NCBI GenBank assembly: GCA_022821725.1
Contig: JAJEDB010000043.1
Coordinates: 22,563 to 86,562, forward strand
DNA length: 64,000 bases
From: Candidatus Poribacteria bacterium
Lineage (GTDB): Bacteria; Poribacteria; WGA-4E; WGA-3G
Direction: 5' to 3'
Of the stretch, positions 1 through 61,959 are shown one piece after another. The notes beneath the pieces were generated by a model, which worked only from the letters and a program-made list of their open reading frames with translations, had not been told where the DNA came from and made no database searches. Position 1 is the stretch's first letter. Each line of letters starts with the position of its first letter. The position numbers were made by a program, and so were the translations under genes.

Positions 1-2489
1 TTAACTTCCAAACAATGGTAATTGATTTAACCGGTTTACCCGTCGCGAATGCCTCCCTCTTAGATGAGGCAACCGCCGCCGCTGAGGCGATGGGAATGTG
101 TGTTGCAAACGTACCACAAAAGATCAGTCGAAACTTTTTTGTGTCAGAAACCTGTCATCCACAAACAATCGCTGTCCTACAAACACGCGCTGAACCCCTC
201 GGTATTGAATTACAAATCGGTGATCATCGCGAGGTCAATTTTGACACACCGATCTTAGGTGCCATCGTGCAATATCCGGCTACAGATGGGGCGATTTACG
301 ATTACAGTGAGTTCGCTAAACAAGTGCATGCCGCTGGCGGTTTATTCGTTACTGCAACGGATCTGTTGGCACTAACACTTTTACGTCCTCCTGGGGAATT
401 CGGCGCTGACATCACTATCGGTAGCGCTCAGCGATTTGGGGTGCCGCTCGGATACGGGGGTCCCCACGCAGCTTTTCTTTCCACACATGAAGAACTTAAA
501 CGTAGTATTCCGGGACGGATTGCGGGGGTTTCTCAAGATGCGACCGGCAAACCTGCGATCCGTCTGGCACTTCAAACGCGGGAACAACACATCCGACGCG
601 AAAAAGCCACGAGCAATATATGCACCGCACAGGTCCTCCTCGCTGTAATGGCGGGGATGTACGCGGTTTATCATGGACCTACCGGACTTAAGCATATCGC
701 TGAACGCGTCCACTCCCTCACTTGCACATTACGGACGGGACTTGAAGAACTGGGATTTACAACAGGCACAGCTCCCTGTTTTGATACGCTTTCTGTTACG
801 ATCCCAGCGGAAGCAACAGCAGAATTGCTCGCTTCTGCACGTGCGCGGGAAATCAATTTTCGGGCAATTGATTCAACGCATATCGGCATCTCTTTAGACG
901 AAACAACAACACCTGTTGATATTGAAGGAATCTTGCAAATATTTGGGGCACAGACACGTTTGGAAAACGTTCCCGGTAGGAGCGAGCTCCAACTCGCAAT
1001 CCCTATGGATTTGCAACGCAAGAGTGCCTACCTAACACATCCGGTGTTCAATAGTTACCATTCTGAAACCGAGATGCTTCGCTATATCCACAAACTTCAA
1101 ACCAAAGACCTCTCCCTTGTGAATGCCATGATACCGCTCGGTTCTTGCACCATGAAACTCAACGCTACGGCGGAGATGGTCCCGGTAACATGGAACGAAT
1201 TTGGCGGATTGCACCCCTTCGCACCGCTGGAACAAGCAAAGGGGTATCAACATCTATTTTCACAATTGGAGACGTGGTTAGCTGAAATAACGGGTTATAG
1301 TGGTATATCGTTGCAGCCGAATGCGGGTTCGCAAGGTGAATATGCCGGACTGTTAGTCATACGAAAATATCACCAGAGTCGCGGGGAGTCGCATCGTAAT
1401 GTCTGCCTAATACCAACATCTGCACACGGCACGAATCCTGCGAGTGCTGTGATGGCGGGAATGCAAGTGGTCGTCGTGGCGTGCGATACGGATGGGAATA
1501 TTGATCTCGCAGATCTTCAATTAAAAGCTGATGCGCATCGTGAAAATCTCGCAGCTGCCATGATTACGTACCCTTCAACACACGGGGTCTTTGAGGAGAA
1601 AATTCGAGAAATTTGCGATATTGTTCATCAATCCGGTGGACAGGTCTACATGGACGGTGCGAATCTGAATGCGCTTGTTGGCATCGGGCAGCCTGCGGAT
1701 ATTGGCGCGGATGTCTGCCATTTGAACCTCCACAAAACTTTCTGTATCCCACACGGAGGCGGGGGTCCGGGGATGGGACCTATTGGAGTCAAGGCACATC
1801 TCACAGATTTCTTGCCAACACATCCACTTGTCCCTGTCGGGGGTGATGCTGGCATTGGTGCGGTATCCGCTGCGCCGTGGGGAAGTCCAGGCATCCTGCC
1901 TATCTCATGGGCTTATGTGGCGATGATGGGACCGCAAGGACTTACAGCAGCGACAGAAGTCGCGATCCTGAACGCCAATTATATTGCCAAACGGCTTGCT
2001 CCGCATTATCCTGTCCTTTATACCGGAAAAAATGGTTTAGTGGCACACGAATGTATCATTGATTTGCGTGCTTTTAAGAAGAGTGCCGACATAGATGTGA
2101 CGGATGTCGCAAAGCGATTGATGGATTATGGATTCCACGCACCGACTGTCTCTTGGCCCGTCTTGGGCACGATGATGATTGAACCGACGGAAAGCGAATC
2201 GACAGCGGAATTAGAACGGTTCTGTGATGCCCTCATCTCAATTCGTGAAGAGATAGCAGAGATTGAGGCGGGTGCCGCTGATCGGGCAGACAATGTATTG
2301 AAAAACGCGCCCCACACCGTAGAAATGGTTACACACTCTGAGTGGGAGCATTCCTATACCCGTGAAAGCGCCGCGTTTCCGAAACCGTGGGTTCGTGAGG
2401 CTAAATTTTGGCCCGCAGTCGCACGTATCAACGAGGTTTATGGCGACAGGAATTTGATGTGTGCCTGCCCACCACTTGATGAATATTAG
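1..2489 (+). CDS. gcvP: Glycine dehydrogenase (glycine cleavage P protein), 5' end outside window
   Basis: Motifs [46 protein letters not shown] and the PLP-lysine motif HLNLHKTF; frame is open from the window edge. Confidence 0.97.
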
Positions 2490-2547
2490 AATTTACGCAA
2501 ACTAAACCAGTATCGGACTTATACGCTGAAAAAATGCGTAAGTCCTA
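2487..2547. repeat. Small MITE-like element with imperfect terminal inverted repeats (TAGAATTTACGCA ... TGCGTAAGTCCTA)
   Basis: Same ends as the element at 31245-31334. Confidence 0.5.
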
Positions 2548-2567
2548 TCCTATATAAAACAAAACCC

Positions 2568-2655
2568 GTAGCCCGTAATGTAATGGAGGGCGGATATAAG
2601 AAACGTATTTGATAGTTCTAACGCACGTTATTTAACCGCAAGGTAAAATTAAAAG
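2568..2655 (+). repeat. 88-bp leader repeat, copy A, ending at the trkA ATG
   Basis: GTAGCCCGTAATGTAATGGAGGGCGG ... CCGCAAGGTAAAATTAAAAG-ATG; six related copies in the window. Confidence 0.85.
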
Positions 2656-4062
2656 ATGAAAGCGATAATTATAGGGGCAGGAGAGGTTGGATTCCATATT
2701 GCCAAACTTCTCACTGTCCAGGCTAACGATGTTGTTCTCATTGATGAATCCGATGCTGCTTGCGATCGGGTTAATGAACAATTGGACTTGCAAACGCTGC
2801 AGGGTTCCGGAGCATCCCCGCGCCTTCTCAAGACCGCTGGCATTGACGAAGCGGATCTCCTCATTGCCGTTACGAATAGTGATGAGATTAATATGCTCGC
2901 TTGTCAGATAGCCGGCAGGTACAGCGTCAGCACAAAAATCGCACGGGTCTCAAATCCTGACTACTTCTCCACAGAGAGCGGACTGACTCCGAAAGACTTC
3001 GGTATCGATCTACTGGTGAGTCCAGAGCAACGCTGCATTGCTGAATTTGTCCGGCTCTTGCAGATACCTGAGGCACGAGAAATTGTCGACTTTGAAGACG
3101 GAAAAGTCCAACTTGTCTCGTTTCGTGCCAGACAGTCAAACCCCTTAATAGGAAAATCGCTCGCCGAGTTGGACGCAAGTGGGCTGCTCGCCGATATCCG
3201 CTTTGCTGCCATCAGTCGTCGTGGCAATCCTAATAACGGCAACCCGATCAGTAACGGCAACAGGCACATTATCATTCCGAGAGGGGCAGATGCACTGCAA
3301 CAAGGGGATGAAGCATTTGTCATCGGCAGTTCGCTGGCAGTTGAGCAATTGTTACGTATTAGTGGTATCACATTTAACCAGCAACTCGATCGTGTTATCA
3401 TCGTGGGGGCAAGCCCCATTGGCATTGGACTCGCCCGTGTGCTTGAAGAAAATGACACCGATGTCAAACTCATTGAAGCCGATCAAACCCAAGCGCGACT
3501 GGCATCCCAACGCCTCAAGCGGACCACCGTTTTACAAGGCGATTATCTTCAATACAGACTCCTTGAAGAAGCAGGTGTAGAGGGTGTTAATGGATTCGTC
3601 TCCGTCACAGGGGACGATGAAAACGACATTATGGCATGCATGACCGCTAAAGAGAACGGTGCCCAGCGTGTCCTCGCGCTCGTTCAGCGGCCTCGTTATC
3701 TCCCCTTGTTGGCGCGTATTCCGAGACTTGATGGTGCGGTGAGTAGACATCTCACGGTTGTTAGCAATATCCTGCGGCTCATCCGTCGCGGAAATATCAT
3801 TTCTGTTGCATCGCTTCACGGAATAGATGCGGAAGTGATTGAGATTGTCGCTGGTGTCAACGCGAAGATTGTCCACAAGGAACTCATCTCTTTCAAAACA
3901 AAATTCCCAGAAAACGCCTTTATCGGTGCCGTCCTTCGACGGGAAAAACTCATGATTCCAACCGGTCAGTCTGTTATCCAACCTGCAGATCGCGTGATCG
4001 TCTTTAGTATGCCCGACGCGATTCCAATTGTCGAAGACCTGTTCGCGGAGCGGAGAGACTAA
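2656..4062 (+). CDS. trkA: Trk K+ uptake system NAD-binding subunit
   Basis: Two RCK-N/RCK-C repeats, IIGAGEVG Rossmann motif, AVTNSDEINM; adjacent to trkH. Confidence 0.95.
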   Translation: MKAIIIGAGEVGFHIAKLLTVQANDVVLIDESDAACDRVNEQLDLQTLQGSGASPRLLKTAGIDEADLLIAVTNSDEINMLACQIAGRYSVSTKIARVSNPDYFSTESGLTPKDFGIDLLVSPEQRCIAEFVRLLQIPEAREIVDFEDGKVQLVSFRARQSNPLIGKSLAELDASGLLADIRFAAISRRGNPNNGNPISNGNRHIIIPRGADALQQGDEAFVIGSSLAVEQLLRISGITFNQQLDRVIIVGASPIGIGLARVLEENDTDVKLIEADQTQARLASQRLKRTTVLQGDYLQYRLLEEAGVEGVNGFVSVTGDDENDIMACMTAKENGAQRVLALVQRPRYLPLLARIPRLDGAVSRHLTVVSNILRLIRRGNIISVASLHGIDAEVIEIVAGVNAKIVHKELISFKTKFPENAFIGAVLRREKLMIPTGQSVIQPADRVIVFSMPDAIPIVEDLFAERRD

Positions 4063-4084
4063 AGGTTGTCAATTACCTATTAAA

Positions 4085-5590
4085 ATGAGCCTTAAATTAA
4101 TCGCTTATACGCTTGGTAATTTACTTATCTGTCTCGCCGGAACGATGCTACTGCCCTTGGGAGTGGCTATCTATTATCAGACGAGAGCCGGTGAAGCCGA
4201 GAGCAATTTGTCGGCTTTTGTCATCTCAGCGATACTCACCTTAGTTGTCGGCTTGGTTCTCCGTTTTAGTATTCGCGCACGACAGGAAGAACTCGGCATC
4301 CGCGAAGGCTTTGCGGTTGTCGCTTTGGGATGGGTAACGGTTGCCCTTTTTGGATCGCTCCCCTACATATTTGCAGACGTGTTTCGCAGTGAAGGTCGCT
4401 CCCCGTGGGTAGAATTTTCCTTCTGTTATTTTGAATCTATGGCGGGGTTCTCGACGACGGGTGCCACTGTCCTCACCGAAATTGAGCATCTTTCACACGC
4501 TGTGCTCTTCTGGCGGAGCCTTTCCCACTGGCTGGGTGGCATGGGAATTGTTGTGCTTGCTGTCGCCATTCTTCCGATGCTCGGCATCGGGGGTATGCAG
4601 CTTTTTCGCGCCGAGGCTCCCGGACCGCAGACCGATCGACTCACCCCGCGTATCGCACAAACGGCTAAACTTCTCTGGGGCGTTTATCTCTTGCTCTCTT
4701 TTTTAGAAACAGCCCTCCTGATGCTCGGCGGCATGTCACTCTTTGACGCGCTCTGCCACACCTTTGGCACGATGGCAACTGGAGGGTTTTCAACGAAGAA
4801 CCAGAGCATCGGGCACTACAACAGTGTTTATGTTGACATGGTTATAAGTTTCTTCATGTTTCTCGCCGGAACTAATTTCGCGCTGCATTACCGTGCGCTT
4901 CGAGGCGATGTCAAAGCCTATTTCCAAGATACAGAATTCAAATTCTACTGTATTGTTATCGCAGTGAGTATTACCCTAATTTCATGGAATACCATCAGGT
5001 TTCAGGTCGATGGGGATATCCCTTATGATTCAATGTGGACATCGCTACGCTATGCTACGTTTCAGGTGACGTCTATCATCACGACCACTGGCTACGGGAC
5101 GGCTGACTTCGAACAGTGGCCCGCCCTCTCCCAATTCATTTTAGTGACACTTATGTTCTACGGGGGGTGCGCTGGCTCCACGGGAGGCGGTATGAAGCAG
5201 GTTCGATTCCTACTCCTTATTAAACAGAGTCGCGCCGAAATTAAACGCCTCCTTTTCCCGCATGCTGTACTTCCTATTCGCGTTAACGATCGAGTCGTTC
5301 CCCCCGAAGTGATGACGAATGTTCTGGGTTTCTTTTTCTTTTTCATCGGGATTTTTGCGATTGTAACGTGCATTATGGCAACTTTGGGGCTTGACCTTGT
5401 GAGTGCCGCTGGTGCGACAATCGCTACACTCGGAAACATCGGTCCCGGTCTCGGTAGCGTAGGACCCACGGATAACTACGCCCATATTCACACGGCTGGA
5501 AAATATATTCTGTCTTTCTGTATGTTACTGGGACGTTTAGAACTTTATACCGTGCTTATCCTCTTTTCACCAAATTTCTGGAAACGATGA
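4085..5590 (+). CDS. trkH: Trk K+ uptake membrane protein (probable start MSLKL at 4085)
   Basis: Selectivity-filter motifs GFSTTGAT, ATGGFS, TTTGYG, GNIGPG; ends LGRLEL. Confidence 0.95.
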   Translation: MSLKLIAYTLGNLLICLAGTMLLPLGVAIYYQTRAGEAESNLSAFVISAILTLVVGLVLRFSIRARQEELGIREGFAVVALGWVTVALFGSLPYIFADVFRSEGRSPWVEFSFCYFESMAGFSTTGATVLTEIEHLSHAVLFWRSLSHWLGGMGIVVLAVAILPMLGIGGMQLFRAEAPGPQTDRLTPRIAQTAKLLWGVYLLLSFLETALLMLGGMSLFDALCHTFGTMATGGFSTKNQSIGHYNSVYVDMVISFFMFLAGTNFALHYRALRGDVKAYFQDTEFKFYCIVIAVSITLISWNTIRFQVDGDIPYDSMWTSLRYATFQVTSIITTTGYGTADFEQWPALSQFILVTLMFYGGCAGSTGGGMKQVRFLLLIKQSRAEIKRLLFPHAVLPIRVNDRVVPPEVMTNVLGFFFFFIGIFAIVTCIMATLGLDLVSAAGATIATLGNIGPGLGSVGPTDNYAHIHTAGKYILSFCMLLGRLELYTVLILFSPNFWKR

Positions 5591-5678
5591 TTTTAATTTT
5601 ACCTTGCGGATAAGCGTCATAGTCTGTATTTTGAAAGTTTTTGATTTCGAGTCGTCCTCCATTACATTACGGACTTGC
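5591..5678 (-). repeat. 88-bp leader repeat, copy B (inverted, abuts the trkH stop codon)
   Basis: Reverse complement reads GCAAGTCCGTAATGTAATGGAGGAC ... CCGCAAGGTAAAATTAAAA. Confidence 0.8.
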
Positions 5679-5767
5679 GGTTCGATCTTAAGAAGTATGT
5701 TCAGAATACGCAAAAACCTGCGCGTAAGCGAAGCGAAGCGCAGATCGAAAACCCAATCATAAAAAAA

Positions 5768-6412
5768 ATGAACACCGATAAACTACGCAGAGAATATAGA
5801 GTCCATGATGGACACCTACTTGAAGAGAATGTTTCGTCCGATCCGTTTGAACAATTTGAAAGGTGGTTCTCGGATGCGATCGCCGCCAAACTCGACCTAC
5901 CGGATGCGATGACGTTGGCAACGGCAACGCCGCAAGGTATACCGTCTGCTCGAATGGTGGTCCTCAGAGGTTTCAATGCGAGAGGTTTCTGTTTCTACAC
6001 GGATTATGGAAGCCAAAAGGGACAGGAACTGGCTGAGAATCCGAACGCGGCGTTGGTATTCTATTGGCGTGAACTCGATCGGCAGGTCCGCAGCACTGGC
6101 ACTGTCGAAAAAATGACAGCCGAGGAATCAGATGCTTACTTCGCCAGTCGTCCAGTGAGCAGTCAACTCGCCGTGTGGGCAGAACGTCAGAGCCTTTTGA
6201 TTTCAGGACGAGAACATCTCACAGAAGGATATCAACGAGCGGAACAGACGTATGCCCAGGATACCATTCCACGTCCACCACAGTGGGGTGGATACCGACT
6301 CGTGCCGAATCTGTTTGAATTTTGGCAGGGGTGTCCGAACCGTCTCCATGATCGACTCTGTTATACGCTACAACCCGATGGGACATGGGAGATGAAACGC
6401 CTATCGCCATAA
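5768..6412 (+). CDS. pdxH: Pyridoxamine 5'-phosphate oxidase (probable start MNTDKLRREY)
   Basis: AMTLATA, PSARMVVL, SQKG, WGGYRL, EFWQG..NRLHDR, C-terminal RLSP. Confidence 0.95.
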   Translation: MNTDKLRREYRVHDGHLLEENVSSDPFEQFERWFSDAIAAKLDLPDAMTLATATPQGIPSARMVVLRGFNARGFCFYTDYGSQKGQELAENPNAALVFYWRELDRQVRSTGTVEKMTAEESDAYFASRPVSSQLAVWAERQSLLISGREHLTEGYQRAEQTYAQDTIPRPPQWGGYRLVPNLFEFWQGCPNRLHDRLCYTLQPDGTWEMKRLSP

Positions 6413-6529
6413 ATTTAATATTTTGTTAGATGAATCAAAGAAATCTCGGAAATCACTTAATTTTTCTTGCAGACTCGTATTACAGTTTAACCGCTCGTAG
6501 AATAGATCGAAAACTGGAGGAGACTCCCA

Positions 6530-6739
6530 ATGAATTCAATGAAATTGGTATGCCTTGCAGGAACACTTTTTCTTTTCTCTTTCCCTGGATGGACAGGTAC
6601 GTTTATCGAAACCTTCAATGAGGACGACCTCATGGGGACGTTTGAAATAGGGAAATTGACAGATATACACCTTTGCGAAAGCGCGTGTGAATGTATCTGC
6701 TGTAGGAGCGACCTCCCGGTCGCGACTCACACCGCATAA
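6530..6739 (+). pseudogene. Truncated N-terminal relic of a secreted protein paralogous to the next gene
   Basis: Signal peptide plus GTFIETFNEDDL resembles GTFVETFDAKDL of 6774-7472; the frame then degenerates into a REP element. Confidence 0.5.
6702..6726 (+). repeat. GTAG-type REP palindrome
   Basis: GTAGGA-GCGACC-TCCC-GGTCGC-GAC. Confidence 0.7.
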
Positions 6740-6773
6740 CAAGGAAAATCATATGAAATTAAGGAGACCGCGG

Positions 6774-7472
6774 ATGAAATTTAGACGTATCATAATTCTG
6801 CTGTTTTTTCTGCCTTTCTCTGCTTCGGCGGGGACGTTTGTGGAAACATTTGACGCCAAAGATTTACAAGATTGGCAGGATCTTACCATGGTGAATCTCG
6901 ATGCTGCTCAAGCTACTTGGGAGGTACTTGATGGCGAACTTCAGGGGATGAGCCATACCACCTTGGTGAGTTTACTTACAGTTGGGGATAAGGCATGGAA
7001 AGATTACATCGTCGAATTTGATGTCAAACCTATGAAAAAACATGGTCCAGGAAGCATAGCAATTGCGGCCCGGAAGAAAAAGACCGCAATCATGACATGT
7101 ATGATCGGTGACATAGAATTTCCAGATCCAGAATCAAAGGCTATCTGCTTCAGCGGTGACTTCCACGGGAATAGATATGTGGTTCTCAACAGCGAAGCCG
7201 CTCCGTTGTTAACATTGGAAACATGGTCACATCTGAAATTGAGCGTTCATGGCCCAACCTTTACCTTCTGGATTAATGGTAAACAGATATTGGAAGCAAG
7301 AGATCAGGAAGCTAATTTTCTGATAGGGGGTGTCGGTTTTGGGATAGCGAACTATACGGCGCGCTTTGATAACATCATCATTACCGGTGATACTATTCCG
7401 AATAAGGGACGGCTTGCCGTAACACCCCAAGGAAAACTCGCGACGGTGTGGGGACAGTTGAAGAAGTTTTAG
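6774..7472 (+). CDS. Secreted DUF1080/concanavalin-like beta-sandwich protein with C-terminal LAVTPQGKLATVWGQLK motif
   Basis: Signal peptide ending SASA; W.DY.VEFDV, W.HLK..V.G..F..W.NG and GGVG.G...ARFDNI.I pattern; AAGGAG RBS (alternative start 6753). Confidence 0.7.
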   Translation: MKFRRIIILLFFLPFSASAGTFVETFDAKDLQDWQDLTMVNLDAAQATWEVLDGELQGMSHTTLVSLLTVGDKAWKDYIVEFDVKPMKKHGPGSIAIAARKKKTAIMTCMIGDIEFPDPESKAICFSGDFHGNRYVVLNSEAAPLLTLETWSHLKLSVHGPTFTFWINGKQILEARDQEANFLIGGVGFGIANYTARFDNIIITGDTIPNKGRLAVTPQGKLATVWGQLKKF

Positions 7473-7556
7473 ACATAGAAACAAGAGGCTATCTTTTCCA
7501 ATGTGAATATAGAGTTATGGTAGTCTTAATTCAAAAATATTTTTTCTAAAAAAAAC

Positions 7557-7585
7557 TTGACAATGTTTTTGAAATATGAGAAACT
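7557..7585 (+). promoter_or_regulatory. Putative sigma70 promoter of the nuo operon
   Basis: TTGACA at 7557, 17-nt spacer, weak TG-n-GAAACT -10 box; AT-rich upstream. Confidence 0.4.
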
Positions 7586-7692
7586 ATTAAGCATATTAGG
7601 GAATTGTGTTTCTGAATCGGCATTAACTTTTAACTTTGGCAAAGTTCACGAGCCAATATTAAGATGTGTGAGGGCAAAATAGATTAGAAACA

Positions 7693-8061
7693 ATGTTAAT
7701 AGATTATCTTCCAATCTTGTTGTTGGGACTCTTCGCAGTCCTCTTTGCGGGTATTAATCTCGCCCTAACCCATATTCTTGGACCCAAACGCCCGACCCGC
7801 GTTAAACTCTCCGTTTACGAATCGGGTGTCCGCCCCGTCGGCGACGCGAGACAACGCTTTACAATTCGGTTTGACCTCGTCGCGATGCTCTTTATCATCT
7901 TCGATATTGAGGTGGTATTCCTTTATCCGTGGGCAGTGGTCTTCAAGAAATTCTCTGAAACGAGTGGTTTATTTATTTTAATTGAAATGCTGGTGTTTAT
8001 CGGTATTCTTCTTCTCGGCTATATCTATGCTTGGAAGAAAGGAGGCTTAACATGGGATTAG
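7693..8061 (+). CDS. nuoA: NADH-quinone oxidoreductase subunit A
   Basis: [27 protein letters not shown]. Confidence 0.97.
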
Positions 8062-8561
8062 ATTTTGTTGGACGCGGGGTCGGAGAGACGGATGGAAATA
8101 TCATCACAACGAGTATAGAGAAGGTTGTCAACTGGGGACGTAAGAACTCGTTGTGGCCCATGCCGTTCGGAACAGCGTGTTGTGCCATTGAGATGATGGC
8201 GACCTTGGCTTCCAAATACGACCTCTCTCGATTCGGTTCTGAAGCGATCCGCTTTTCACCCCGCCAATCGGATCTGCTCATCGTTTCCGGCAGGATTTCC
8301 ATCAAGATGATGCCGGTGCTAAAACGGATTTATGACCAAATGCCGGATCCGAAGTGGGTGATTTCGATGGGGGCATGCGCTTCCTGCGGCGGCGTGTTTG
8401 ACACCTATACCCTCATCCAAGGCGTTGATCAGTTCCTCCCCGTGGATGTTTACATACCCGGATGCCCGCCACGCCCCGAAGACCTCATTGATGCCGTGAT
8501 GCAGGTGCAGCAGAAAATCACCAGTGGTGCTTCACCTAAGGGAGTAGAGGCAGTCGTATGA
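8052..8561 (+). CDS. nuoB: NADH-quinone oxidoreductase subunit B
   Basis: [11 protein letters not shown] (N2 tandem cysteines), SPRQSD, GACA, PGCPPRP. Confidence 0.97.
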
Positions 8562-9106
8562 ATGAAGAGAAAGAAGTTGAAGAACAGTCGAAACCGCTCG
8601 TCCTTGAAAAATTAGAGGAACATCACGCAGATGCTCTCTTGGCACAGGACGAAATGCGTGGCACTGTCGTCGTTGTTGTTCGTAAAGAACAGGCTTACGC
8701 CGTTTTGGAGTATCTGAAAACGGATGCTGAACTCGCCTATACCTTTCTCGTTGATGTTACCGCTGTCGACAATTCTCAGATGGAATCCGAGTTGATGCAG
8801 TTTGACTATGCGCGGTTCATGGTCGTCTATCAGCTCTATTCCTATCAGGGGCAGTGTCGCCTCCGAGTAAAGGTCCCTGTCCATGAAAGTGACTTAAGCA
8901 TTCCATCCGTGACTGCATTGTGGAAAGGTGCGAACTGGCTGGAGCGTGAGACTTACGACATGTTTGGTATCAATTTTGAGGGACACCCCGATCTGCGTCG
9001 GATCTTGATGCCGGACGATTTTGAGGGACACCCGCTCCGTAAGGATTATCCACTCCGCGGACGTGGCGAGCGCGAACGCTTTAATTTTGATAAACAGAAT
9101 GTCTAA
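8558..9106 (+). CDS. nuoC: NADH-quinone oxidoreductase subunit C
   Basis: [25 protein letters not shown]...GHPLRKDYP. Confidence 0.97.
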
Positions 9107-9251
9107 AACTGCCCAGGATTTTTGTAATTTTTGTGATTTACCATGATAGAATGATGAGAACTCCGATAATTATGGTAAATCTCCCCTCTTATATCGCTGG
9201 CACATCAATCATAGTTCAGATTTTAACTGAAAGCCAAAAAAGGAGTATTTT

Positions 9252-10448
9252 ATGCAAGGTGGGCTGGAACGCGCCACAGGTGAGAAGATGGTCCTCAGCT
9301 TCGGTCCGCAACATCCGGCAACGCATGGCACCCTTCGCATTGTGTTAGAACTTGATGGCGAATCCGTTCTGAAAGCGACACCACATGCCGGCTACCTGCA
9401 TACCGGATTTGAGAAACTCGGTGAACACTTGGATTACAACCAGTACATCGTTGTAACCGATCGGATGAACTATCTGTCGCCGTTGTCTAACAATTTCGGC
9501 TATGTGCTTGCTGTCGAGCAGTTGCTCGACATTGAGGTTCCAAAGCGGTGTCAATACATCCGTATATTGATGGCGGAACTCTCACGACTCGCAGATCACC
9601 TCTTATGGTTGGGAACTGCCGCCTTGGACTTAGGGGCATTCTCTGTATTCCTCTATAGTTTCCGAGAACGCGAGAAGTTGTATAGCATTTTTGAAAAGAC
9701 GACCGGCGCACGGTTGACGACCAGTTACACGCGTATTGGCGGTGTGCTTCGCGATCTCTATGCTGGGTGTGAAGAAGATGTGCGCGAATTCGTCAATAAC
9801 TTCCCGAAGGCGTTGAAGGAGACGCATACGCTCCTCACACGAAACCGTATCTGGATGGATCGGACGAAAGGTGTCGGACCCATTTCAGCTGATGATGCCA
9901 TCGACTACGGATTAACAGGTCCCTGCCTTCGAGCCGCCGGTGTAGCGCATGATATACGCAAGGCTGAACCGTATTCCAGTTACGATGAGGTCACCTTTGA
10001 TGTGCCAGTTGGAACGAATGGTGATGCCTACGATCGCTACCTTGTCCGGATGGAGGAGATGATCCAGAGTTGCGGTATCGTTAGCCAAGTCTTGGATAAC
10101 ATGCCTGACGGACCGGTCAACGTTGAGAATAATAAGATCACGATGCCGAATAAATCGGATGCTTACGGGCATATTGAGGGTTTAATCCATCACTTTAAGG
10201 TTGTCATGGATGGACACGGTGTCGAAACGCCAAAGGGTGAGCATTATTGTGCAACCGAGTCCCCGAACGGCGAACTCGGATTTTATATTCTCAGTGATGG
10301 CAGCGGCACGGCTTATCGCATCCGCATCCGTCCACCGAGTCTTTTGCACTTCCAAGCACTCCCCCACATGTTAGAGGGCGGAATGGTTTCCGATACCGTG
10401 GCCGTCTTGGGAAGTTTGAATGTTATTGCCGGAGAGTTGGATCGCTAA
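9252..10448 (+). CDS. nuoD: NADH-quinone oxidoreductase subunit D
   Basis: GPQHPATHGTLR, GYLHTGFEK, DRMNY, C-terminal GELDR. Confidence 0.97.
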   Translation: MQGGLERATGEKMVLSFGPQHPATHGTLRIVLELDGESVLKATPHAGYLHTGFEKLGEHLDYNQYIVVTDRMNYLSPLSNNFGYVLAVEQLLDIEVPKRCQYIRILMAELSRLADHLLWLGTAALDLGAFSVFLYSFREREKLYSIFEKTTGARLTTSYTRIGGVLRDLYAGCEEDVREFVNNFPKALKETHTLLTRNRIWMDRTKGVGPISADDAIDYGLTGPCLRAAGVAHDIRKAEPYSSYDEVTFDVPVGTNGDAYDRYLVRMEEMIQSCGIVSQVLDNMPDGPVNVENNKITMPNKSDAYGHIEGLIHHFKVVMDGHGVETPKGEHYCATESPNGELGFYILSDGSGTAYRIRIRPPSLLHFQALPHMLEGGMVSDTVAVLGSLNVIAGELDR

Positions 10449-10463
10449 AATAGAGAGAATGAA

Positions 10464-10820
10464 ATGAAAGAGAATGAATTGAATCTCAGCGGCATTATGC
10501 TTTTCGTCAAAGACATGAAAACTGTCATAGCGTTTTACAGGGATGTCATCGGATTGACGCCTGACGAAGATCAACCGTTCCCAGAACACCGCTTTTTTCG
10601 CTTTAACGCGGGTGATTGCACCTTGTGCCTCCATAGCGCGAGCAAACCCAACGAAGGCAGACAGAAACTCATGTTTCACGTTGAAAGCGTGAGTGCCATT
10701 CATCAGCACATAAAATCGAAAGGGAAGCGATTACGGAAACTTGAGAACGACGAGGGGCATGCCATTTTCGATATCCGCGATCCAGAAGGCAACCGTATTC
10801 AGTTTTACGGGAAATACTAA
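10464..10820 (+). CDS. VOC/glyoxalase family protein
   Basis: V.D....AFY..V.G N-terminus and DPEGNRIQ C-terminus. Confidence 0.8.
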   Translation: MKENELNLSGIMLFVKDMKTVIAFYRDVIGLTPDEDQPFPEHRFFRFNAGDCTLCLHSASKPNEGRQKLMFHVESVSAIHQHIKSKGKRLRKLENDEGHAIFDIRDPEGNRIQFYGKY

Positions 10821-10993
10821 TTTCGATATAACAGGAGAGGATACAACAGAAGAAGAAGTGAAAGATCTTGCTGGCACCTGTTACTTCACTTCTAATCCGC
10901 AGTATTTACAGTTAGTGTTTCGGCGGACCTCGTTAGAAATACTTCATTCTCTTTTTGAGAAGATTTACTCGCGGAGGCAAAGGACTACTACAG

Positions 10994-11464
10994 ATGTTTA
11001 AAAGTGTATGGATTCAGGGTTTGGTCGCTCTGATGATTCTTTTGGGCTCTGGTATAGTGTTTTCTCAAGCACAACTACCAATAACACCTACTGCAACGGT
11101 GAAAACTGTATTCATAGGACTTCCCAAAACAGGTACGGCTTTCAGTGGAACGGAAGATGCAAAACTTCTAAAGTTATCGCATGAGCGGGCAAAGAAACTT
11201 GATTGCGTCATAATCAAGAAGGGCGATAAATATTTTTGGACATCTCGTGATGATCACGAAGTAGAAAAAATTGTTGGAGGTGCTTTCATTACGTTTAGAA
11301 GATTAGATCGTCCTGATTATGTCAGAATTGTTAACCCGGATTTAAAAAGAAGTGCTGCACTATTGGACGAGGCTGCGGAAAAGTTTGACTATGTTGAGCA
11401 TATAACGATTAACTTAACCAGTTTAACTTATTACGGATCAGCAATAAAATATCAACCTGACTGA
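10994..11464 (+). CDS. Hypothetical secreted protein
   Basis: N-terminal hydrophobic signal (MFKSVWIQGLVALMILLGSGIVFSQA); no recognised domain. Confidence 0.6.
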   Translation: MFKSVWIQGLVALMILLGSGIVFSQAQLPITPTATVKTVFIGLPKTGTAFSGTEDAKLLKLSHERAKKLDCVIIKKGDKYFWTSRDDHEVEKIVGGAFITFRRLDRPDYVRIVNPDLKRSAALLDEAAEKFDYVEHITINLTSLTYYGSAIKYQPD

Positions 11465-11489
11465 TTCAGATCCATTCAATTTATAACCA

Positions 11490-11723
11490 ATGTACTTTGA
11501 AATCATTGGCACAATCGAAAACATTGAAACGATTGCCGTGGGTGGACGAATCCGTGAAATTCAAAGGCTTCGTAAACAATATGGTTCTGGAAGATGGCGG
11601 AAGCTTAAAGGTATTGCCTATATTCGCCTGACGAAAGGTAGTATTCGGAGAGCAGAGATTCATTGGTATGAAGCTCATGGAATTGGTAAAAAGAAGATGA
11701 AAATCAAACGATTTCTGGACTAA
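11490..11723 (+). CDS. Small basic protein, putative toxin of a two-gene module
   Basis: 77 aa, Arg/Lys-rich, AEIHWYEAHGIGK motif; 4 nt from an acidic partner. Confidence 0.65.
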   Translation: MYFEIIGTIENIETIAVGGRIREIQRLRKQYGSGRWRKLKGIAYIRLTKGSIRRAEIHWYEAHGIGKKKMKIKRFLD

Positions 11724-11727
11724 AATT

Positions 11728-11958
11728 ATGAAAAAAAAACTATTAGAAACCCAATTCGTGCTTTGCATCGAAAATAGAGACTGTGAGGACATAGAGAAGC
11801 GGAAATTCTACCAACTTTTGCCTGACGTAGAAGCGGCTCGCGAGGGATATCTGCGAGTTGTTGATGAATCTCAGGAAGACTATCTGTATCCTGAATCTTA
11901 TTTCATTTTTGTTGAACTGCCTCGCAAAGTACAGGAGGCATTTGTAGCAGCAGATTAA
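11728..11958 (+). CDS. Small acidic protein, putative antitoxin/immunity protein
   Basis: 76 aa, RVVDESQEDYLYP motif; coupled to the preceding ORF. Confidence 0.65.
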   Translation: MKKKLLETQFVLCIENRDCEDIEKRKFYQLLPDVEAAREGYLRVVDESQEDYLYPESYFIFVELPRKVQEAFVAAD

Positions 11959-11965
11959 TATCAGC

Positions 11966-12102
11966 AAAATGTTACACTTTTCGCCAAATTATTATTTTTT
12001 TTCACCGCGGGAGATCAGAAAAAATGACCTTGAACCCTTACGGTCCCTGGGTTTTATATGCCTAACCTCTGCAAGGAAAATGTTACACAAGTGTAACATT
12101 TT
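11966..12102. mobile_element. MITE-like element with 14-bp terminal inverted repeats
   Basis: AAAATGTTACACTT (11966) and AAGTGTAACATTTT (12089-12102); the right end is itself the palindrome AAAATGTTACAC-AA-GTGTAACATTTT. Confidence 0.55.
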
Positions 12103-12126
12103 TGGAGAATTTTAAGGAAAACATAG

Positions 12127-12645
12127 ATGTCAGATGAACTCATTCAAATCGAAACGCCTTTCGCGTTTAATGAAGAAAATCAACGCGAATTCGACGCGTT
12201 GATAGGACGGTACCCCGTTAAAGAAGCGGCGATGCTCCCAACCCTTCATCTTGCGCAAAGGCAAGCAGGGTACATCACCCCTGCCGTCATGAAGTATGTC
12301 GCAGAGCAACTTGAAGTCTCTGTGATGAAGGTCAAGGATGTCGTTACTTTCTATCCGATGTTCTTTGAGGAACCGGTCGGTGAGTACGTGATTCGGGTAT
12401 GCCATACGTTGCCTTGTGCGTTGCGAGATTGTAAAGGCGTTTTGGACCATCTTAAGACGAAGTTGGACACGGATGTTGCTGCTGAAACCAATCTCGCCAA
12501 AGGCACAACCCCTGATGGGAAGTTCACGCTCATGAAAGTGGAATGCCTTGCCTCATGTGATGTCGCTCCTGTTATCATGGTGAATGACGATTTGCATAAG
12601 AATTTAACCCCGGAAAAAATTGATGAAATCATAGATAATCTGTAG
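12127..12645 (+). CDS. nuoE: NADH-quinone oxidoreductase subunit E
   Basis: VVTFYPMF, CxxxxC and ECLASCDVAPV [2Fe-2S] motifs. Confidence 0.95.
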   Translation: MSDELIQIETPFAFNEENQREFDALIGRYPVKEAAMLPTLHLAQRQAGYITPAVMKYVAEQLEVSVMKVKDVVTFYPMFFEEPVGEYVIRVCHTLPCALRDCKGVLDHLKTKLDTDVAAETNLAKGTTPDGKFTLMKVECLASCDVAPVIMVNDDLHKNLTPEKIDEIIDNL

Positions 12646-12655
12646 AGGAGATAGT

Positions 12656-14131
12656 ATGGTAGAAGAAAGACGAATTCTCTACGAGCATCTGGATGTGCCT
12701 GATATTAACACGTTCGATGTCTTTCGGCAATACGACGGTTACACCCGCTTTGAAAAGGCAATCACGGAATATCAACCAGACGATATCGCAAAAATGGTGA
12801 TGGATTCCGGGTTGAAGGGTAGAGGCGGTGCCGGATTTTCGACAGGCTTGAAATGGAGTTTCGTTCCAAGAGACATAAAACCGTGTTATCTCTGTTGCAA
12901 TGCCGACGAAAGTGAACCAGGGACGTTTAGTAATCGCTACGTTTTGGAAAAGAATCCACACCTATTGATTGAGGGTATCCTGATTTGCTGCTATGCAATG
13001 GGCATTGAGACGACGTATGTCTACATTCGCGGTGAATTCACACTCGGGAAAAAGATGCTGGATGCCGCTATCAAAGAAGCTTACGAGAAGGGATACCTCG
13101 GCAAAGACATCCGTGGCACGGGTCTCAACATCGACATCTATACACACCCAGGTGCCGGTGCCTATATCTGTGGCGAGGAGACGGGACTCATTGAATCGCT
13201 TGAGGGCAAACGTGGGCAACCGCGGAACAAGCCTCCGTTCCCTGCTGTTGAAGGCGTATTTGGAAAACCCACCGTCGTTCAGAATGTCGAGACGTTGTGT
13301 AACCTGCCTTTCATCGTTGGCAACGGCGTTGAATGGTATACCCAGATGGGACCGACGTATGCCGATACGCGCGCGAATCCACCGACACCCGACCCCAACA
13401 CAGGCACGAAGCTTTATTGCATCAGTGGCGATGTTAACGAACCCGGTGTTTATGAGCTCGATCTCGGTTTGACCTGTTCAGAACTCATTGAGGTCGCAGG
13501 TGGACTGCGCGGCGAAGAGGTGAAAGCAGTTATCCCTGGTGGGAGTTCCGCACCGATTTTAACACACTACGAGTTGGACACGCGACTGGACTTTACCTCG
13601 CTCACGCTTGCTAAGTCAATGCTCGGCTCCGGGGGCATCATTGTCATGAACGAGACCCGGAACATCGTCGATTGCCTGCTCAATATCATGAAGTTCTATG
13701 CCCATGAATCGTGTGGACAGTGTACGCCGTGCCGTTGGGGAACCCCGTGGGTGCGAGATATTGTGCAACGGATCGCCGATGGAGATGGGCGAAAAAGCAC
13801 GATGACACGTCCTAAATTCGGTGTCGCTGAAAATGGTAGATGGGGTGATACCGGTGAGACAGAAGAGATCTACGAGGACTTAGATTTGCTGGAAAGTGTC
13901 GCCAATAACATTGCGAATGTGGATACAATGACGTGGAATACGATTTGTGTCTTTGGCATCGCAGTTTCCTGGCCTGCTGTGAGTTATCTGCGCAAGTTCC
14001 GACCCGAATTTGAAGCCGCTATCCGAGAAGGGAAACTTGTCACGCTACCTGTTGCTGAGGCGACTGTCCCACCGGAAGAAAATTACGCGTATCAACAGCG
14101 GTTTATTCCGAAGGAGTTCGCTGACCTATAA
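12656..14131 (+). CDS. nuoF: NADH-quinone oxidoreductase subunit F
   Basis: GLKGRGGAGF, NADESEPG, GAGAYICGEET, ESCGQCTPCR. Confidence 0.97.
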   Translation: MVEERRILYEHLDVPDINTFDVFRQYDGYTRFEKAITEYQPDDIAKMVMDSGLKGRGGAGFSTGLKWSFVPRDIKPCYLCCNADESEPGTFSNRYVLEKNPHLLIEGILICCYAMGIETTYVYIRGEFTLGKKMLDAAIKEAYEKGYLGKDIRGTGLNIDIYTHPGAGAYICGEETGLIESLEGKRGQPRNKPPFPAVEGVFGKPTVVQNVETLCNLPFIVGNGVEWYTQMGPTYADTRANPPTPDPNTGTKLYCISGDVNEPGVYELDLGLTCSELIEVAGGLRGEEVKAVIPGGSSAPILTHYELDTRLDFTSLTLAKSMLGSGGIIVMNETRNIVDCLLNIMKFYAHESCGQCTPCRWGTPWVRDIVQRIADGDGRKSTMTRPKFGVAENGRWGDTGETEEIYEDLDLLESVANNIANVDTMTWNTICVFGIAVSWPAVSYLRKFRPEFEAAIREGKLVTLPVAEATVPPEENYAYQQRFIPKEFADL

Positions 14132-14146
14132 GGAAAAAATTTAAAA

Positions 14147-15808
14147 ATGGCATTTGTTAAACTGAATGACCTTGAGATAGAGGTTGAAGATGGAACGAAT
14201 GTAGTCGAGGCAGCAAGGCAACACGGTATTGAAGTCCCTCACTACTGTTATCACCAAGGGTTGAGCCGTCCAGCGAATTGCAGAATGTGTCTCGTTGAAC
14301 CGCATGTCTTCTTCCCACCTGCTGGCGCAATCGTCCCGGATCGACAACTCGCAACCGGGTGTACCACGGTGTTGAGAACGGCACCGCCCGATAGAAAACT
14401 TGATGGGAAATACGACTTTATTGTCCGCACAGATAGCGAGCGCGTCAAAAAGGCACGCGCGGACATATTGGAATTTCTGCTTGTGCATCACCCACTTGAT
14501 TGCCCCGTCTGTGATCAGGCTGGTGAATGCGATTTGCAAGACTACTCACATCGACATGGACATGATAAGAGTCGCTATCTTGAGGTCAAAAACGTTCCAC
14601 CTAAGAAAGACTTGGGGCCTGATGTATTGCTCTACGCGACACGCTGCGTTGTCTGCACCCGGTGTATCCGATTTGCTGACGAGGTTTCTGGAACGGGGGA
14701 ATTGGGCTTAGTTCACCGCGGCTCCCACGATGAAATTGATATCCCACGCAGCCACGAGGGTGTTCCCCTGCAGGTACTGGATAACAAATTGGCAGGAAAT
14801 GTTGTTGATATCTGTCCCGTTGGGGCATTGATTAGCAAAGACTTCCTGTTCAAGTCGCGTCCATGGTTCTTGGAGAAAGCGAATAGCGTCTGTTCAGGAT
14901 GTAGTGTCGGTTGCAATATCACCGTAGAATATAAAGCCGACGGTGTTTACAGACTCAAGCCGCGCTTCCACGAAGACATCAACCAACATTGGATGTGCGA
15001 CGACGGTCGCCTCGGTTACCACTATGTTAACAGCGATGACCGGCTCCAACTTCCCCTTAAACGGGTTGACGACGCTCTCACGCCAACACATTGGGCAGAT
15101 GCCTTAGCGACGATTACAGAAAAATTGTCGGAAATAGAAACTGAAGATATTGTTGTTATCGGCTCTGCACAGGGCACCAATGAAGACAACTACGTCTTAC
15201 AGCAGTTCGCGCATGATGTCCTGAAAACAACACAGTTGGGACTCTTTGGACATCTGCCCGGTGAAGCACACAAGTTCCCACAATTTACAATTGAAGCCGA
15301 CAAGAATCCAAACACGGCAGGGGCACGAACGATACTCGGTTCCACGAATGGCAACACCGTTTTAGAGGGTGATGCGCTTTGGGAAAAGGTATCAAGTGCC
15401 AAAGTCGTCTACCTCGTGAGTGGTGCACCGGAACGTCCTCTTGAAGATGCTGAAAAAGCTGCATTGGAGAGTGTCGATTTCCTTATTGTGCAAGATGTTT
15501 TGCCTTCAGAAGTAACCCAGTTCGCTGATGTCGTCCTACCCGGAACAACCTTCGCAGAGAAAGATGGCACCTTCACCAACTCTACAGGGTGGGTGCAGCG
15601 GATTCGTAAGACGATTGATCCGCCGGGCGAAGCACGTGTGGATTGGGAAATTACGCAGCAGCTTGCTAAGCAGTTGGGCGGCGAGATGAACTATCACTTT
15701 GCGGGTGAAATCGCATTGGAAATTGCTGAGAATGTACCGGGCTATGCTGATGCAACACATCAAAAAATTGGAGATGCGGGGATTAAGTTAGCAGACAGCA
15801 CTCAGTAA
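14147..15808 (+). CDS. nuoG: NADH-quinone oxidoreductase subunit G (short form, 553 aa)
   Basis: CYH...NCRMC, HPLDCPVCDQAGEC, CVVCTRC..CP and CSGCSVGC...C cluster motifs; EKDGTFTN. Confidence 0.92.
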   Translation: MAFVKLNDLEIEVEDGTNVVEAARQHGIEVPHYCYHQGLSRPANCRMCLVEPHVFFPPAGAIVPDRQLATGCTTVLRTAPPDRKLDGKYDFIVRTDSERVKKARADILEFLLVHHPLDCPVCDQAGECDLQDYSHRHGHDKSRYLEVKNVPPKKDLGPDVLLYATRCVVCTRCIRFADEVSGTGELGLVHRGSHDEIDIPRSHEGVPLQVLDNKLAGNVVDICPVGALISKDFLFKSRPWFLEKANSVCSGCSVGCNITVEYKADGVYRLKPRFHEDINQHWMCDDGRLGYHYVNSDDRLQLPLKRVDDALTPTHWADALATITEKLSEIETEDIVVIGSAQGTNEDNYVLQQFAHDVLKTTQLGLFGHLPGEAHKFPQFTIEADKNPNTAGARTILGSTNGNTVLEGDALWEKVSSAKVVYLVSGAPERPLEDAEKAALESVDFLIVQDVLPSEVTQFADVVLPGTTFAEKDGTFTNSTGWVQRIRKTIDPPGEARVDWEITQQLAKQLGGEMNYHFAGEIALEIAENVPGYADATHQKIGDAGIKLADSTQ

Positions 15809-15842
15809 AAAGAGTGGATTTTGGAAACGTTAAAACCAAATT

Positions 15843-15930
15843 GTAGCCTGCAACAACGGTGCAGGCGGATATAGGGAAGGCGCGTTAGAGTCAGCACCTA
15901 CGTTCTTTCTCCGCAAGGAATATTTAAAAT
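15843..15930 (+). repeat. 88-bp leader repeat, copy C, ending at the nuoH ATG
   Basis: GTAGCCTGCAACAACGGTGCAGGCGG ... CCGCAAGGAATATTTAAAAT-ATG. Confidence 0.85.
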
Positions 15931-17115: not shown

Positions 17116-17120
17116 GAGGC

Positions 17121-17657
17121 ATGCTTATGAATGCAGAACAGATTCTATTTATTCTCTTTGGAGCGGTCTCGCTGATTGGCGCGATTGCTGTCATCTCGTT
17201 TCGACATCCGATTTATAGCGCGCTTTCGCTTATTGTAACGTTCTTTGCACAAGCGGGGCTTTTCGTCCTGTTGGGTGCACATTTCGTCGCGGCTGTCCAA
17301 GTCATCGTCTACGCCGGCGCGATTATGGTCCTATTCCTCTTTGTGATTATGCTCTTGAACTTGGGGACACTCTCGGTGAAAGGGGCTATTGGAACGAAAC
17401 TGAAGGGATTCGCTATTATTTTAGGCATCCTTCTTGCCGCCGAAGGCATTTACATCGCAATGAATGCCCTGAATGACACCGCAGTGGCATCGGCAGAACC
17501 TGCAGCGATAACGACAACCACTTATGACATTGGTGAGCTCTTGTTCAGCAAGTACCTCTTACCTTTTGAAGTTACCTCGCTTATCTTGTTAGCGGCATTG
17601 ATCGGCGTTATCGTCTTGGTCAAACGCGATAGTCAAGAAGAAAACCAAAATCGGTAA
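17121..17657 (+). CDS. nuoJ: NADH-quinone oxidoreductase subunit J
   Basis: QVIVYAGAIMVLFLFVIMLL, LLPFEVTSLILL. Confidence 0.95.
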   Translation: MLMNAEQILFILFGAVSLIGAIAVISFRHPIYSALSLIVTFFAQAGLFVLLGAHFVAAVQVIVYAGAIMVLFLFVIMLLNLGTLSVKGAIGTKLKGFAIILGILLAAEGIYIAMNALNDTAVASAEPAAITTTTYDIGELLFSKYLLPFEVTSLILLAALIGVIVLVKRDSQEENQNR

Positions 17658-17693
17658 CCAGTAGGTGAGTGTTATCTTCCTAACTTCAAAAAC

Positions 17694-17781
17694 ATAGCCC
17701 ATAACGTAGTGGAGGGCGGATTTGAGAAAGGCACGTTAAAGTCCAAACTCATGCCGTTTAACCGCAAGGAAAGTTAAAAGT
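17694..17781 (+). repeat. 88-bp leader repeat, copy D, ending at the nuoK ATG
   Basis: ATAGCCCATAACGTAGTGGAGGGCGG ... CCGCAAGGAAAGTTAAAAGT-ATG. Confidence 0.85.
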
Positions 17782-18081
17782 ATGTCATTAGAGTATTATC
17801 TCGTATTGAGTGCACTCCTGTTTACAACGGGAGTCATCGGGGTCCTCATCCGCAGGAACGCAATTATCATCTTTATGTGTATCGAACTGATGCTGAATGC
17901 GGCGAACCTCGCCTTTGTAGCCATCAGTCGGAGTCTCGGTGAGGCAACGGGACAGGTGTTCGTTTTCTTTGTAATGACTGTCGCCGCTGCTGAGGTCGCG
18001 ATTGGACTCGCAATTATCGTGAGCGTCTTCAAACATCGACAGACGATTAATGTGGATGAAGTTAATTCGTTGAAGGGCTAA
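17782..18081 (+). CDS. nuoK: NADH-quinone oxidoreductase subunit K
   Basis: RRN...[21 protein letters not shown]. Confidence 0.97.
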
Positions 18082-18166
18082 GCAAAATTGGCTATCAGTT
18101 AAAGAAGATTCTGATGTGCGTCACAAATCTCTGACTGAATACCTCGAACCCATAGAAGGATAAAAA

Positions 18167-23325: not shown

Positions 23326-23357
23326 AACTGACAACTGACAACTGATAACTGACAACC
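23326..23357 (+). repeat. Heptamer tandem repeat (AACTGAY)x4
   Basis: CCTCTT-AACTGAC-AACTGAC-AACTGAT-AACTGAC-AACC. Confidence 0.8.
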
Positions 23358-39116: not shown

Positions 39117-39187
39117 TTGGACGCAAGATGTAACAATAGGAGTTCTTGATAGCATAAACTGTTAGTTACCGCAGTTCTAAAGAAACC

Positions 39188-39276
39188 GTAGCCTGCAACA
39201 ACGGCGCAGGCGGGTTTCAGGAACGCACTTGATAGTTTAGACGCCCCTCATTCCCCCGCAAGGTATAATTAAAAAT
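39188..39276 (+). repeat. Leader repeat, copy E (89 bp), ending at the bioB ATG
   Basis: GTAGCCTGCAACAACGGCGCAGGCGG ... CCGCAAGGTATAATTAAAAAT-ATG. Confidence 0.85.
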
Positions 39277-61771: not shown

Positions 61772-61881
61772 ATTTTAATTTTTCCTTGCGGTTCGGTAAG
61801 GGAAGTTAGAGACTTCACGTGCCATTCCGTAGATCTGCAGAAATACCCAAGCAAAAACCCTGCTCCGTTGTTGCAGGCTAC
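61772..61881 (-). repeat. Leader repeat, copy F (110 bp), ending at the Gfo/Idh/MocA ATG
   Basis: Minus strand GTAGCCTGCAACAACGGAGCAGGG ... CCGCAAGGAAAAATTAAAAT-ATG. Confidence 0.85.
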
Positions 61882-61898
61882 GACTTCGCTAAATCTAT

Positions 61899-61959
61899 CT
61901 TTAATTTTTCCTTGCGGTTCGATAAGGGAAGTTAGAAGTTTCACGTGCTATTCCATTTT
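61899..61959 (-). repeat. Leader repeat, partial copy G (3' half), a tandem duplicate of F
   Basis: TTTAATTTTTCCTTGCGGTTCGRTAAGGGAAGTTAGA repeated at about 61774 and 61900. Confidence 0.8.

Follow-up and report, generated by a model that had tools for sequence, protein, structure and literature searches.

The window, by which we mean the whole 64,000-nucleotide stretch of Candidatus Poribacteria DNA analysed here, carries a dispersed repeat directly upstream of five genes (trkA, nuoH, nuoK, a BioB-like gene and a Gfo/Idh/MocA gene) and at two further sites. An iterated nhmmer search of the window returned exactly seven copies, alignable over approximately 97 nt and lettered A to G in Table 1; these are the seven that an earlier note, written from the sequence alone, had described, and direct read-out of the sequence agrees with the search for all of them. 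Pfam also agreed with the gene names in that note, the fourth (bioB) being matched as a radical-SAM/BATS, BioB-like gene, and its assignment of hairpin types fits provided that its lettering is taken to follow coordinate order. As had been observed there, copies A to E all finish in TTAAAA and one or two further nucleotides, after which comes an ATG. The TTAAAA of copy A (2649-2654) is followed by G and the trkA ATG at 2656. Copies B and D, with tails reaching 15929 and 39275, are each followed by T and an ATG, that of nuoH at 15931 and that of the BioB-like gene at 39277, while copy C, with a tail to 17779, is followed by GT and the nuoK ATG at 17782. On the minus strand, the tail of copy E runs from 61773 and the ATG lies at 61771.

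Table 1. Copies of the repeat, component parts of copy A and related leaders within the window.
Feature	Positions	Strand	Evidence
Copy A, full length, adjoins trkA start	2558..2654	+	nhmmer 73 bits; Pfam TrkA
Copy A, 5' extension	2558-2567		
Copy A, GTAG	2568-2571		
Copy A, hairpin P1	2571-2591		
Copy A, CCGCAAGG	2636-2643		
Copy A, A/T tail	2644-2654		
Copy F, reversed relative to flanking genes	5591..5688	-	nhmmer; Pfam TrkH
Body-less tail-like leader before nuoG	14129..14146	+	sequence; Pfam
Copy B, between nuoG and nuoH	15833..15929	+	nhmmer; Pfam NuoH
Copy C, between nuoJ and nuoK	17684..17779	+	nhmmer; Pfam NuoK
Copy D, adjoins radical-SAM/BATS (BioB-like) gene	39178..39275	+	nhmmer; Pfam
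Short leader of a sister family, ending ...CATAGTTTAAAAA	55258..55277	-	sequence
Copy E, adjoins Gfo/Idh/MocA gene start	61773..61891	-	nhmmer; Pfam
Copy G, 5'-truncated, model positions 33-86	61900..61953	-	nhmmer

The two remaining copies lie beside stop codons. The tail of copy F (5591-5596 on the plus strand) touches the TGA stop of the TrkH gene (5588-5590), and copy G, directly 3' of the stop of a DUF6785 gene, is the distal partner of copy E in a tandem pair. Two leaders in the window resemble the end of the repeat alone. Before nuoG, the TAA of the preceding nuo gene overlaps an AAGG, which is followed by an A/T run and the ATG at 14147; in a related strain this position carries CCGCAAGG (loose end at 14135). 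The sister-family leader is confined between a TAA at 55278-55280 and an ATG at 55257. Other short repeats share the window. Tandem arrays of the heptamer AACTGAC/AACTGAT at 23326-23356 and 51006-51039, and also at 50943-50969, are situated just 5' of two gene starts, with ATGs at 23376 and 51045; arrays of this heptamer are found genome-wide, and in relatives they directly precede tails or copies of the element, often ending in GTTAAGAGGTTT on the opposite strand. At 2536-2547, 5' of copy A, there is TGCGTAAGTCCT, which is seen 12-25 nt before many other start codons of the genome and is perhaps the end of another small repeat, or a regulatory box.

From 5' to 3', the element consists of a weakly conserved CCAAAACC-type extension, which in copy D is longer and begins near 39150; a GTAG head, replaced by ATAG, CAAG or GCAG in some copies (ATAG in copy C, CAAG in copy F); a 21-nt hairpin directly after the head; GCGGAT; a variable linker of approximately 45 nt; the block CCGCAAGG, which is invariant; and, last, an A/T tail with TTAAAA at its end. 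The earlier note had claimed that the 5' hairpin covaries, and this was confirmed on an alignment of 44 copies, in which both sides change at three of the four stem pairs and at the apical Y-R pair, the paired fraction of cells is 94.6%, none of 500 shuffles matches the observed score and slid controls collapse; it holds on 205 copies too. The outer stem varies among CG, UA, AU and GC pairs (GCCTGC/GCAGGC in copy B, GTCC/GGAC in copy F), the apical Y-R pair closes a GNA triloop, and the interior of the hairpin contains a conserved GTAAYGNARTGGAG. Across the 205 copies, the middle region has no conserved fold and there is no covariation outside the 5' hairpin. The GCGG and CCGC columns are invariant, and so covariation says nothing on the alternative pairing proposed for them. 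Neither terminal inverted repeats, the two ends not being complementary, nor any consistent target-site duplication was found; TTAR was present 5' of 82 copies out of 313, compared to 37 for a control window.

Many apparent truncations are in fact full copies in which 21-42 nt have been inserted in or next to the hairpin loop. Copy E, a variant 107-110 nt long, has 21 nt inserted beside the hairpin. A nested insertion of approximately 42 nt (…TAGGTTCTCCTTAAATGGCATAATTTGTCTT…) occupies the hairpin loop of at least ten copies of this family and of the sister family (C62:30651, C127:85339, C52:5077 and others), and a second type of insertion consists of CCCAAGCAAAAACA-like units. The final A/T run is common to this family and its sister families. 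In one of the latter the hairpin shares the loop motif and is followed directly by CCCAGGAG and the tail; others have small hairpins such as CCCGTTAGGG or CGCTTGGCG in place of CCGCAAGG. In approximately 190 more genes TTAAA stands at -7 or -8 and the CAAGG block is absent.

The assembly from which the window comes (G000; 4.97 Mb in 151 contigs, 48.6% G+C, 91% complete) was searched with an HMM built from the four plus-strand window copies and iterated once, accepting E values up to 1e-3. This returned 449 copies of the ~95-nt repeat, on nearly all of the larger contigs; 445 of them extend to the model's 3' terminus, and 360 begin in its first ten positions. Placement was counted on the 421 copies with a complete 3' tail; in 206 of these, the start codon of a long ORF follows at a distance of 0-5 nt. 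A stricter count, requiring an ATG 0-4 nt past the model end and an ORF of 80 aa or more opened by it, gives 186 copies, among which 148 share a single offset, TTAAAA-N-ATG. For 68 tails, the opposite strand has a long ORF whose stop falls between -12 and +10 of the tail end; for 42 of the 68 the stop is a TAA at exactly -5, that is, the TTA of the tail read backwards, and the proteins so terminated mostly end in ...xF. Another 28 tails run into a further copy, and 83 have a sense ATG 6-200 nt beyond, about ten of these with a duplicated tail at 22-24 nt and about a dozen with an intervening ordinary Shine-Dalgarno (SD) sequence. The other 36 are placed otherwise. No ATG lies within 12 nt of 191 of the 421 tails, and the tandem and antisense copies have none. 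The suggestion of the earlier note that the repeat sits at gene boundaries, checked here by tabulating distances to starts and stops, therefore holds genome-wide and far beyond chance.

Orientation is also biased. With genes called crudely from ORFs, the copies that lie between co-directional genes number 246 in sense and 59 in antisense orientation. Among 199 start-abutting copies, 176 come after a co-directional gene, the nuo operon included, and 23 have a divergent neighbour; in 21 of these 23, more than 100 nt remain outside the element for a promoter. The 49 close pairs comprise 36 tandem and 13 head-to-head arrangements, and none that is tail-to-tail. At two loci of this genome (C91:3812 and C104:14555) we observed proteins with a C-terminal TTWGxIK-type tag that end 2-3 residues later in an element-derived F-stop.

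The translation signals of the host are conventional. The 3' end of 16S rRNA is canonical. In the genes of the genome that lack the element, the SD signal is normal and strongest between -12 and -8 (for GGAG, at -11), and neither a sign of leaderless starts nor a TAnnnT signal at -12 is seen. The AAGG of the element lies at -16 to -13, which is 4-5 nt farther from the ATG than the usual SD of this genome; pairing with the anti-SD is nonetheless plausible, and the start regions led by the element are predicted to be less structured (-2.26 vs -3.98 kcal/mol, p = 1.6e-17). In the nuo operon the native SD has been replaced. Congeners without the element there (G054 and G077) have AAGGAG-type sites in spacers of 46-48 nt before nuoH and nuoK, and the position of the start codon is the same with or without the element. 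The earlier note had proposed that the repeat brings its own initiation signal, and the sequence supports this: since the full 95 nt before the ATG are repeat, and relatives lacking it have an ordinary AAGGAG at that place, the repeat probably carries the initiation signals of the genes that it abuts.

The leader of nuoH could be read at 25 of 30 congener loci. In three it is AAGGAGAAACT-ATG and in 22 it ends in the tail, preceded by at least five kinds of body: this repeat in six, a different hairpin body in seven, the sister family in three, the tail only or a 25-nt stub in two, and heptamer arrays or other sequence in four. Among the matches listed, the NuoH protein is 76-97% identical to 24 Candidatus Poribacteria records and at most 61% identical to others; the 24 Poribacteria-titled loci divide by distance, the tail being present in the 11 closest and absent from the 13 farther away, 11 of which have an SD-type site. 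Motif counts point the same way. The counts of TTAAAANATG are 278 in the window's genome (control 47) and, in two close relatives, 246 (control 32) and 297 (control 39), compared to 63 (control 40) in the element-free congener G054 and 86 (control 54) in G077; for AATTAAAANATG the count is 183 in the window's genome (control 4) and 10-16 in three sister-genus genomes. Because the tail motif is near control level in the element-free congener, the tail was imported with the repeats and was not a pre-existing landing site.

Reversed copies were followed at one antisense locus, on contig C30, by comparison with nine relatives. At empty sites the upstream protein ends in ...EEL-TAA, with the AAGGAGG of the next gene directly after; at the filled site of the window's genome the protein has the same length and ends in ...EDF-TAA, its last bases being derived from the tail. 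TTTAA was already present at the stop in two of the empty sites. At the same stop codon four other relatives (L125, L126, L131 and L135) have a different small repeat with GGTGCGGTTAGAAACCGCACC hairpins. That repeat is flanked by a duplicated gene-end stretch of ~10 nt, and the protein there ends in ...EEF-TAA.

The repeat is phyletically restricted. A covariance model of the 44 copies, run on 101 sampled genomes of the Poribacteria phylum, found matches in 38: in 30 of 31 from the window's own genus, where most reach the scoring cap, in 2 of 30 from the sister genus, and as a few single hits elsewhere. Within the genus, turnover is rapid. Upstream of trkA, four genomes with flanking genes 95-97% identical have four different states, namely the full element; 31 unrelated nucleotides and a 16-nt tail; heptamer repeats and TTTAAAAAT; and a 1.9-kb insert ending 14 nt into the tail. 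The last 9-16 nt before the ATG are kept in all four. The 1.9-kb insertion, in G122 (L101/L104), has at least one extra ORF. In a 96% identical genome (G016), 17 nt separate the nuoG stop from the nuoH ATG; they carry the same unusual tail variant as the window and are bounded by an AAG microhomology, and the body was probably deleted here, given that more distant genomes have a full copy together with its left flank. At nuoK two relatives have the sister family and two have different copies of this repeat, and relatives differ at the BioB-like gene and at the locus of copies E and G too. Breakpoints cluster just 5' of the last 9-25 nt, a pattern that selection on a working initiation region would be expected to give. 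Tandem arrays look like local duplications that include the downstream flank, examples being C105, with a 23-nt repeat, and G102, with a remnant ATGAAG. Eighteen RNA-labelled runs overlap the window as assembled contigs, and four were compared with window positions 1-20000; the strains are 93-99% alike, and the runs give allele information only, with 80 other letters in place of 2488-2650 and 170 in place of 17645-17781, matching the alleles of G067 and G122. Among genomes at least 95% identical there was no clean pair of an empty site with native SD and a filled one, and transposition itself was thus not observed.

The interpretation offered in the earlier note was in part upheld. A high-copy repeat with a REP-like GTAG hairpin at gene boundaries is supported by the 449 copies and the covariation, and the absence of any Rfam match agrees with the view that it belongs to no described family: at gathering thresholds the window yields two tRNAs only, and a permissive scan of ten copies gave one chance-level snoRNA hit (E = 0.72). 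A search of the literature on Poribacteria repeats found no paper on the element. The proposed link to RAYT transposases was not supported. The genome (assembly 91% complete) has four Y1_Tnp loci, none with a rayt gene flanked by inverted copies; the nearest copy is 5.5 kb off, and a hairpin-only HMM found no orphan hairpins near them. A Y1 transposase was rejected as the mover, its presence not tracking that of the element, since 75 of the 81 genomes in the family have Y1 genes, with G054, which lacks the element, and the sister genus among them. The best Y1-transposase match, L001 (G000:C79:11715-12059), has an in-frame TAA and is probably a broken copy.

Inverted doublets or alternating clusters of the REPIN/BIME kind are absent from the 49 close pairs, there being one hairpin per unit. 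Copies truncated at the 3' end are essentially absent; two orphans proved to be full copies of other families. Truncation at the 5' end in the manner of SINEs was rejected, as the 'truncated' hits are often full copies with loop insertions and the distal truncated copies in arrays are local duplications with the downstream flank. Carriage by phage was dismissed too, an exact tail match being present in only one viral contig, with a weak model score (22 bits). Among the matches listed for complete genomes there was no clear replication-strand bias.

We consider the element to be a non-autonomous, REP-like dispersed repeat fused to a portable translation-initiation tail, a reading to which, from sequence comparison, we give a probability of roughly 0.6. 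The last 16-25 nt would act as a portable initiation region, in which AAGG pairs with the CCUU of the canonical anti-SD and an unstructured A/U-rich spacer sets AAGG at -16 to -13; we infer that the tail is a working ribosome-binding region, and it would have displaced an ancestral AAGGAG in approximately 200 genes. In reverse, the tail (TTTAA) would give the neighbouring gene its last codon or two and a TAA stop. Because the tail would serve starts and, reversed, stops, the element would be tolerated at either gene boundary and leave operons unbroken. Selection would preserve the tail, and the body (hairpin and linker) would be dispensable to the gene and turn over fast by deletion, local tandem duplication and replacement. 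The hairpin is presumably the recognition site of a copying machinery, most likely as single-stranded DNA, and the element appears to be mobile now or to have been so formerly.

Several other explanations bear on the same evidence. The tail could be a portable promoter for leaderless mRNAs, with TAAAAT/TATAAT at -12 to -7 as a -10 box and transcription from the A of the ATG. The geometry of hexamer, 6-7 nt and ATG fits, the spacing is strict (most ATG-abutting copies share one offset) and the AAGG is farther upstream than a normal SD, but there is no conserved -35-like motif, the element-free genes have no TAnnnT at -12, most start-abutting copies follow a co-directional gene even inside the nuo operon, the 17-nt nuoH leader of G016 leaves little between stop and start, and the hexamers of the sister family vary (CATAGT, for example); we judge this highly unlikely. 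Somewhat in the spirit of the RNA switch of the earlier note, the hairpin with its GTAAYGNARTGGAG might instead bind a protein or ligand as a domesticated RNA operator, placing ~200 genes under one post-transcriptional control, like Neisseria REP2. Covariation of the stem, the conserved loop, the recurrence of that loop motif in the sister family just before an SD-like CAGGAG, and the excess of sense copies would all suit such an operator. Yet the switch alternative is not supported, since only the 5' hairpin covaries and in close relatives the body, hairpin included, has been lost while gene and tail persist intact, and the operator meets further obstacles in that the hairpin tolerates nested insertions of 21-42 nt, some 59-68 copies are antisense and would be represented in RNA by their complement, no conserved fold joins the hairpin to the start site, and the genes served are unrelated housekeeping genes. 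An operator is accordingly improbable in our estimation.

It is also conceivable, if distinctly doubtful, that there is no transposon at all, and that a favoured leader tail has spread through local duplication, through illegitimate joining and through homologous exchange between the conserved 25-nt blocks, only well-placed copies being retained by selection. Tandem arrays that are local duplications with their downstream flank, the shuffled alleles of close relatives and the failure to find either a transposase or a target duplication all agree with this, but 449 copies and ~200 unrelated starts invaded within one genus need efficient copying, the covarying hairpin subfamilies resemble lineages of a replicating element, and neither the one exact offset nor the -5 stop class is expected of random joining. 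Pure target preference, in which the element inserts at a pre-existing TTAAAA before starts and contributes nothing, has very little probability left. The tail end is the junction in both orientations, and TTTAA was already at the stop in two relatives' empty sites at the one antisense locus; against it, TTAAAANATG stays near control in G054 and reaches 6-8 times control in element-rich genomes, and native nuoH and nuoK leaders have no such site. It is largely refuted for start sites and could hold for the stop-codon class. A bolder possibility, which we think unlikely, is mobile DNA of a new kind that homes to gene boundaries, its copying machinery setting the tail at a fixed offset from start codons or into stops and so rewriting the translation signals of ~5% of a genus's genes; the shared hairpin may then add a common control at the RNA or DNA level.

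A dispersed repeat with a portable initiation tail would matter in several respects. Previously known repeats with a ribosome-binding site, those of Neisseria and Borrelia, exist in a handful of copies; in this genome ~200 initiation regions would be concerned, those of core respiratory-complex genes within operons included, and the repeat is specific to one genus of uncultured sponge symbionts and donates stop codons when reversed. It offers a natural experiment on how far translation signals can be exchanged, a source of compact portable leaders, and a caution for gene calling, and for anyone searching these genomes for riboswitches or leaders. If placement were mechanistic rather than selective, it would point to an unknown gene-boundary targeting.

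Among known systems, palindrome-associated elements derived from IS200/IS605 have subterminal hairpins, no target duplication, one defined end that joins a short specific sequence, and probably single-stranded intermediates, and the YGNAR apex of the Poribacteria repeat resembles very stable DNA mini-hairpins; unlike those derivatives, the repeat has dissimilar ends and no cognate TnpA was identified. The mycobacterial interspersed repetitive units (MIRUs) fill operon spacers in gene orientation, with ends overlapping the flanking stop and start codons, and are tandem minisatellites with small coupled ORFs. Like MIRUs, the Poribacteria repeat overlaps gene boundaries; unlike them, it is dispersed, untranslated and hairpin-bearing. 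REP/BIME sequences have a GT(A/G)G head and a palindrome kept by compensating changes, and association with rayt defines them (Nunvar et al. 2010, PMC2817692). The likeness consists of the GT(A/G)G head, the compensated palindrome, a copy number far above 100 and mosaicism with other short repeats; the differences are that no rayt is flanked by the hairpins, that each unit has one hairpin and forms no inverted doublets, that a 60-nt linker and leader are fused to it, that it stands before starts and not after genes, and that its host is outside the proteobacteria.

Of the known systems Neisseria REP2 comes nearest, by description, as an analogue rather than a relative. The contact-regulated REP2 and the Borrelia plasmid IR are dispersed intergenic repeats directly before unrelated ORFs, with a ribosome-binding site and 5' stem-loops (Delihas 2011, PMC3184786); REP2, with 23-26 copies per genome, is said there to include promoter and ATG, and it marks a co-regulated gene set (PMC3184786). 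The tail of the Poribacteria repeat has a -10-like hexamer. All three stand immediately before unrelated ORFs, with a 5' stem-loop and no terminal inverted repeats; unlike REP2, the Poribacteria repeat has ~450 copies, leaves the ATG outside the repeat, donates stops when reversed, and has bodies that are modular and replaceable.
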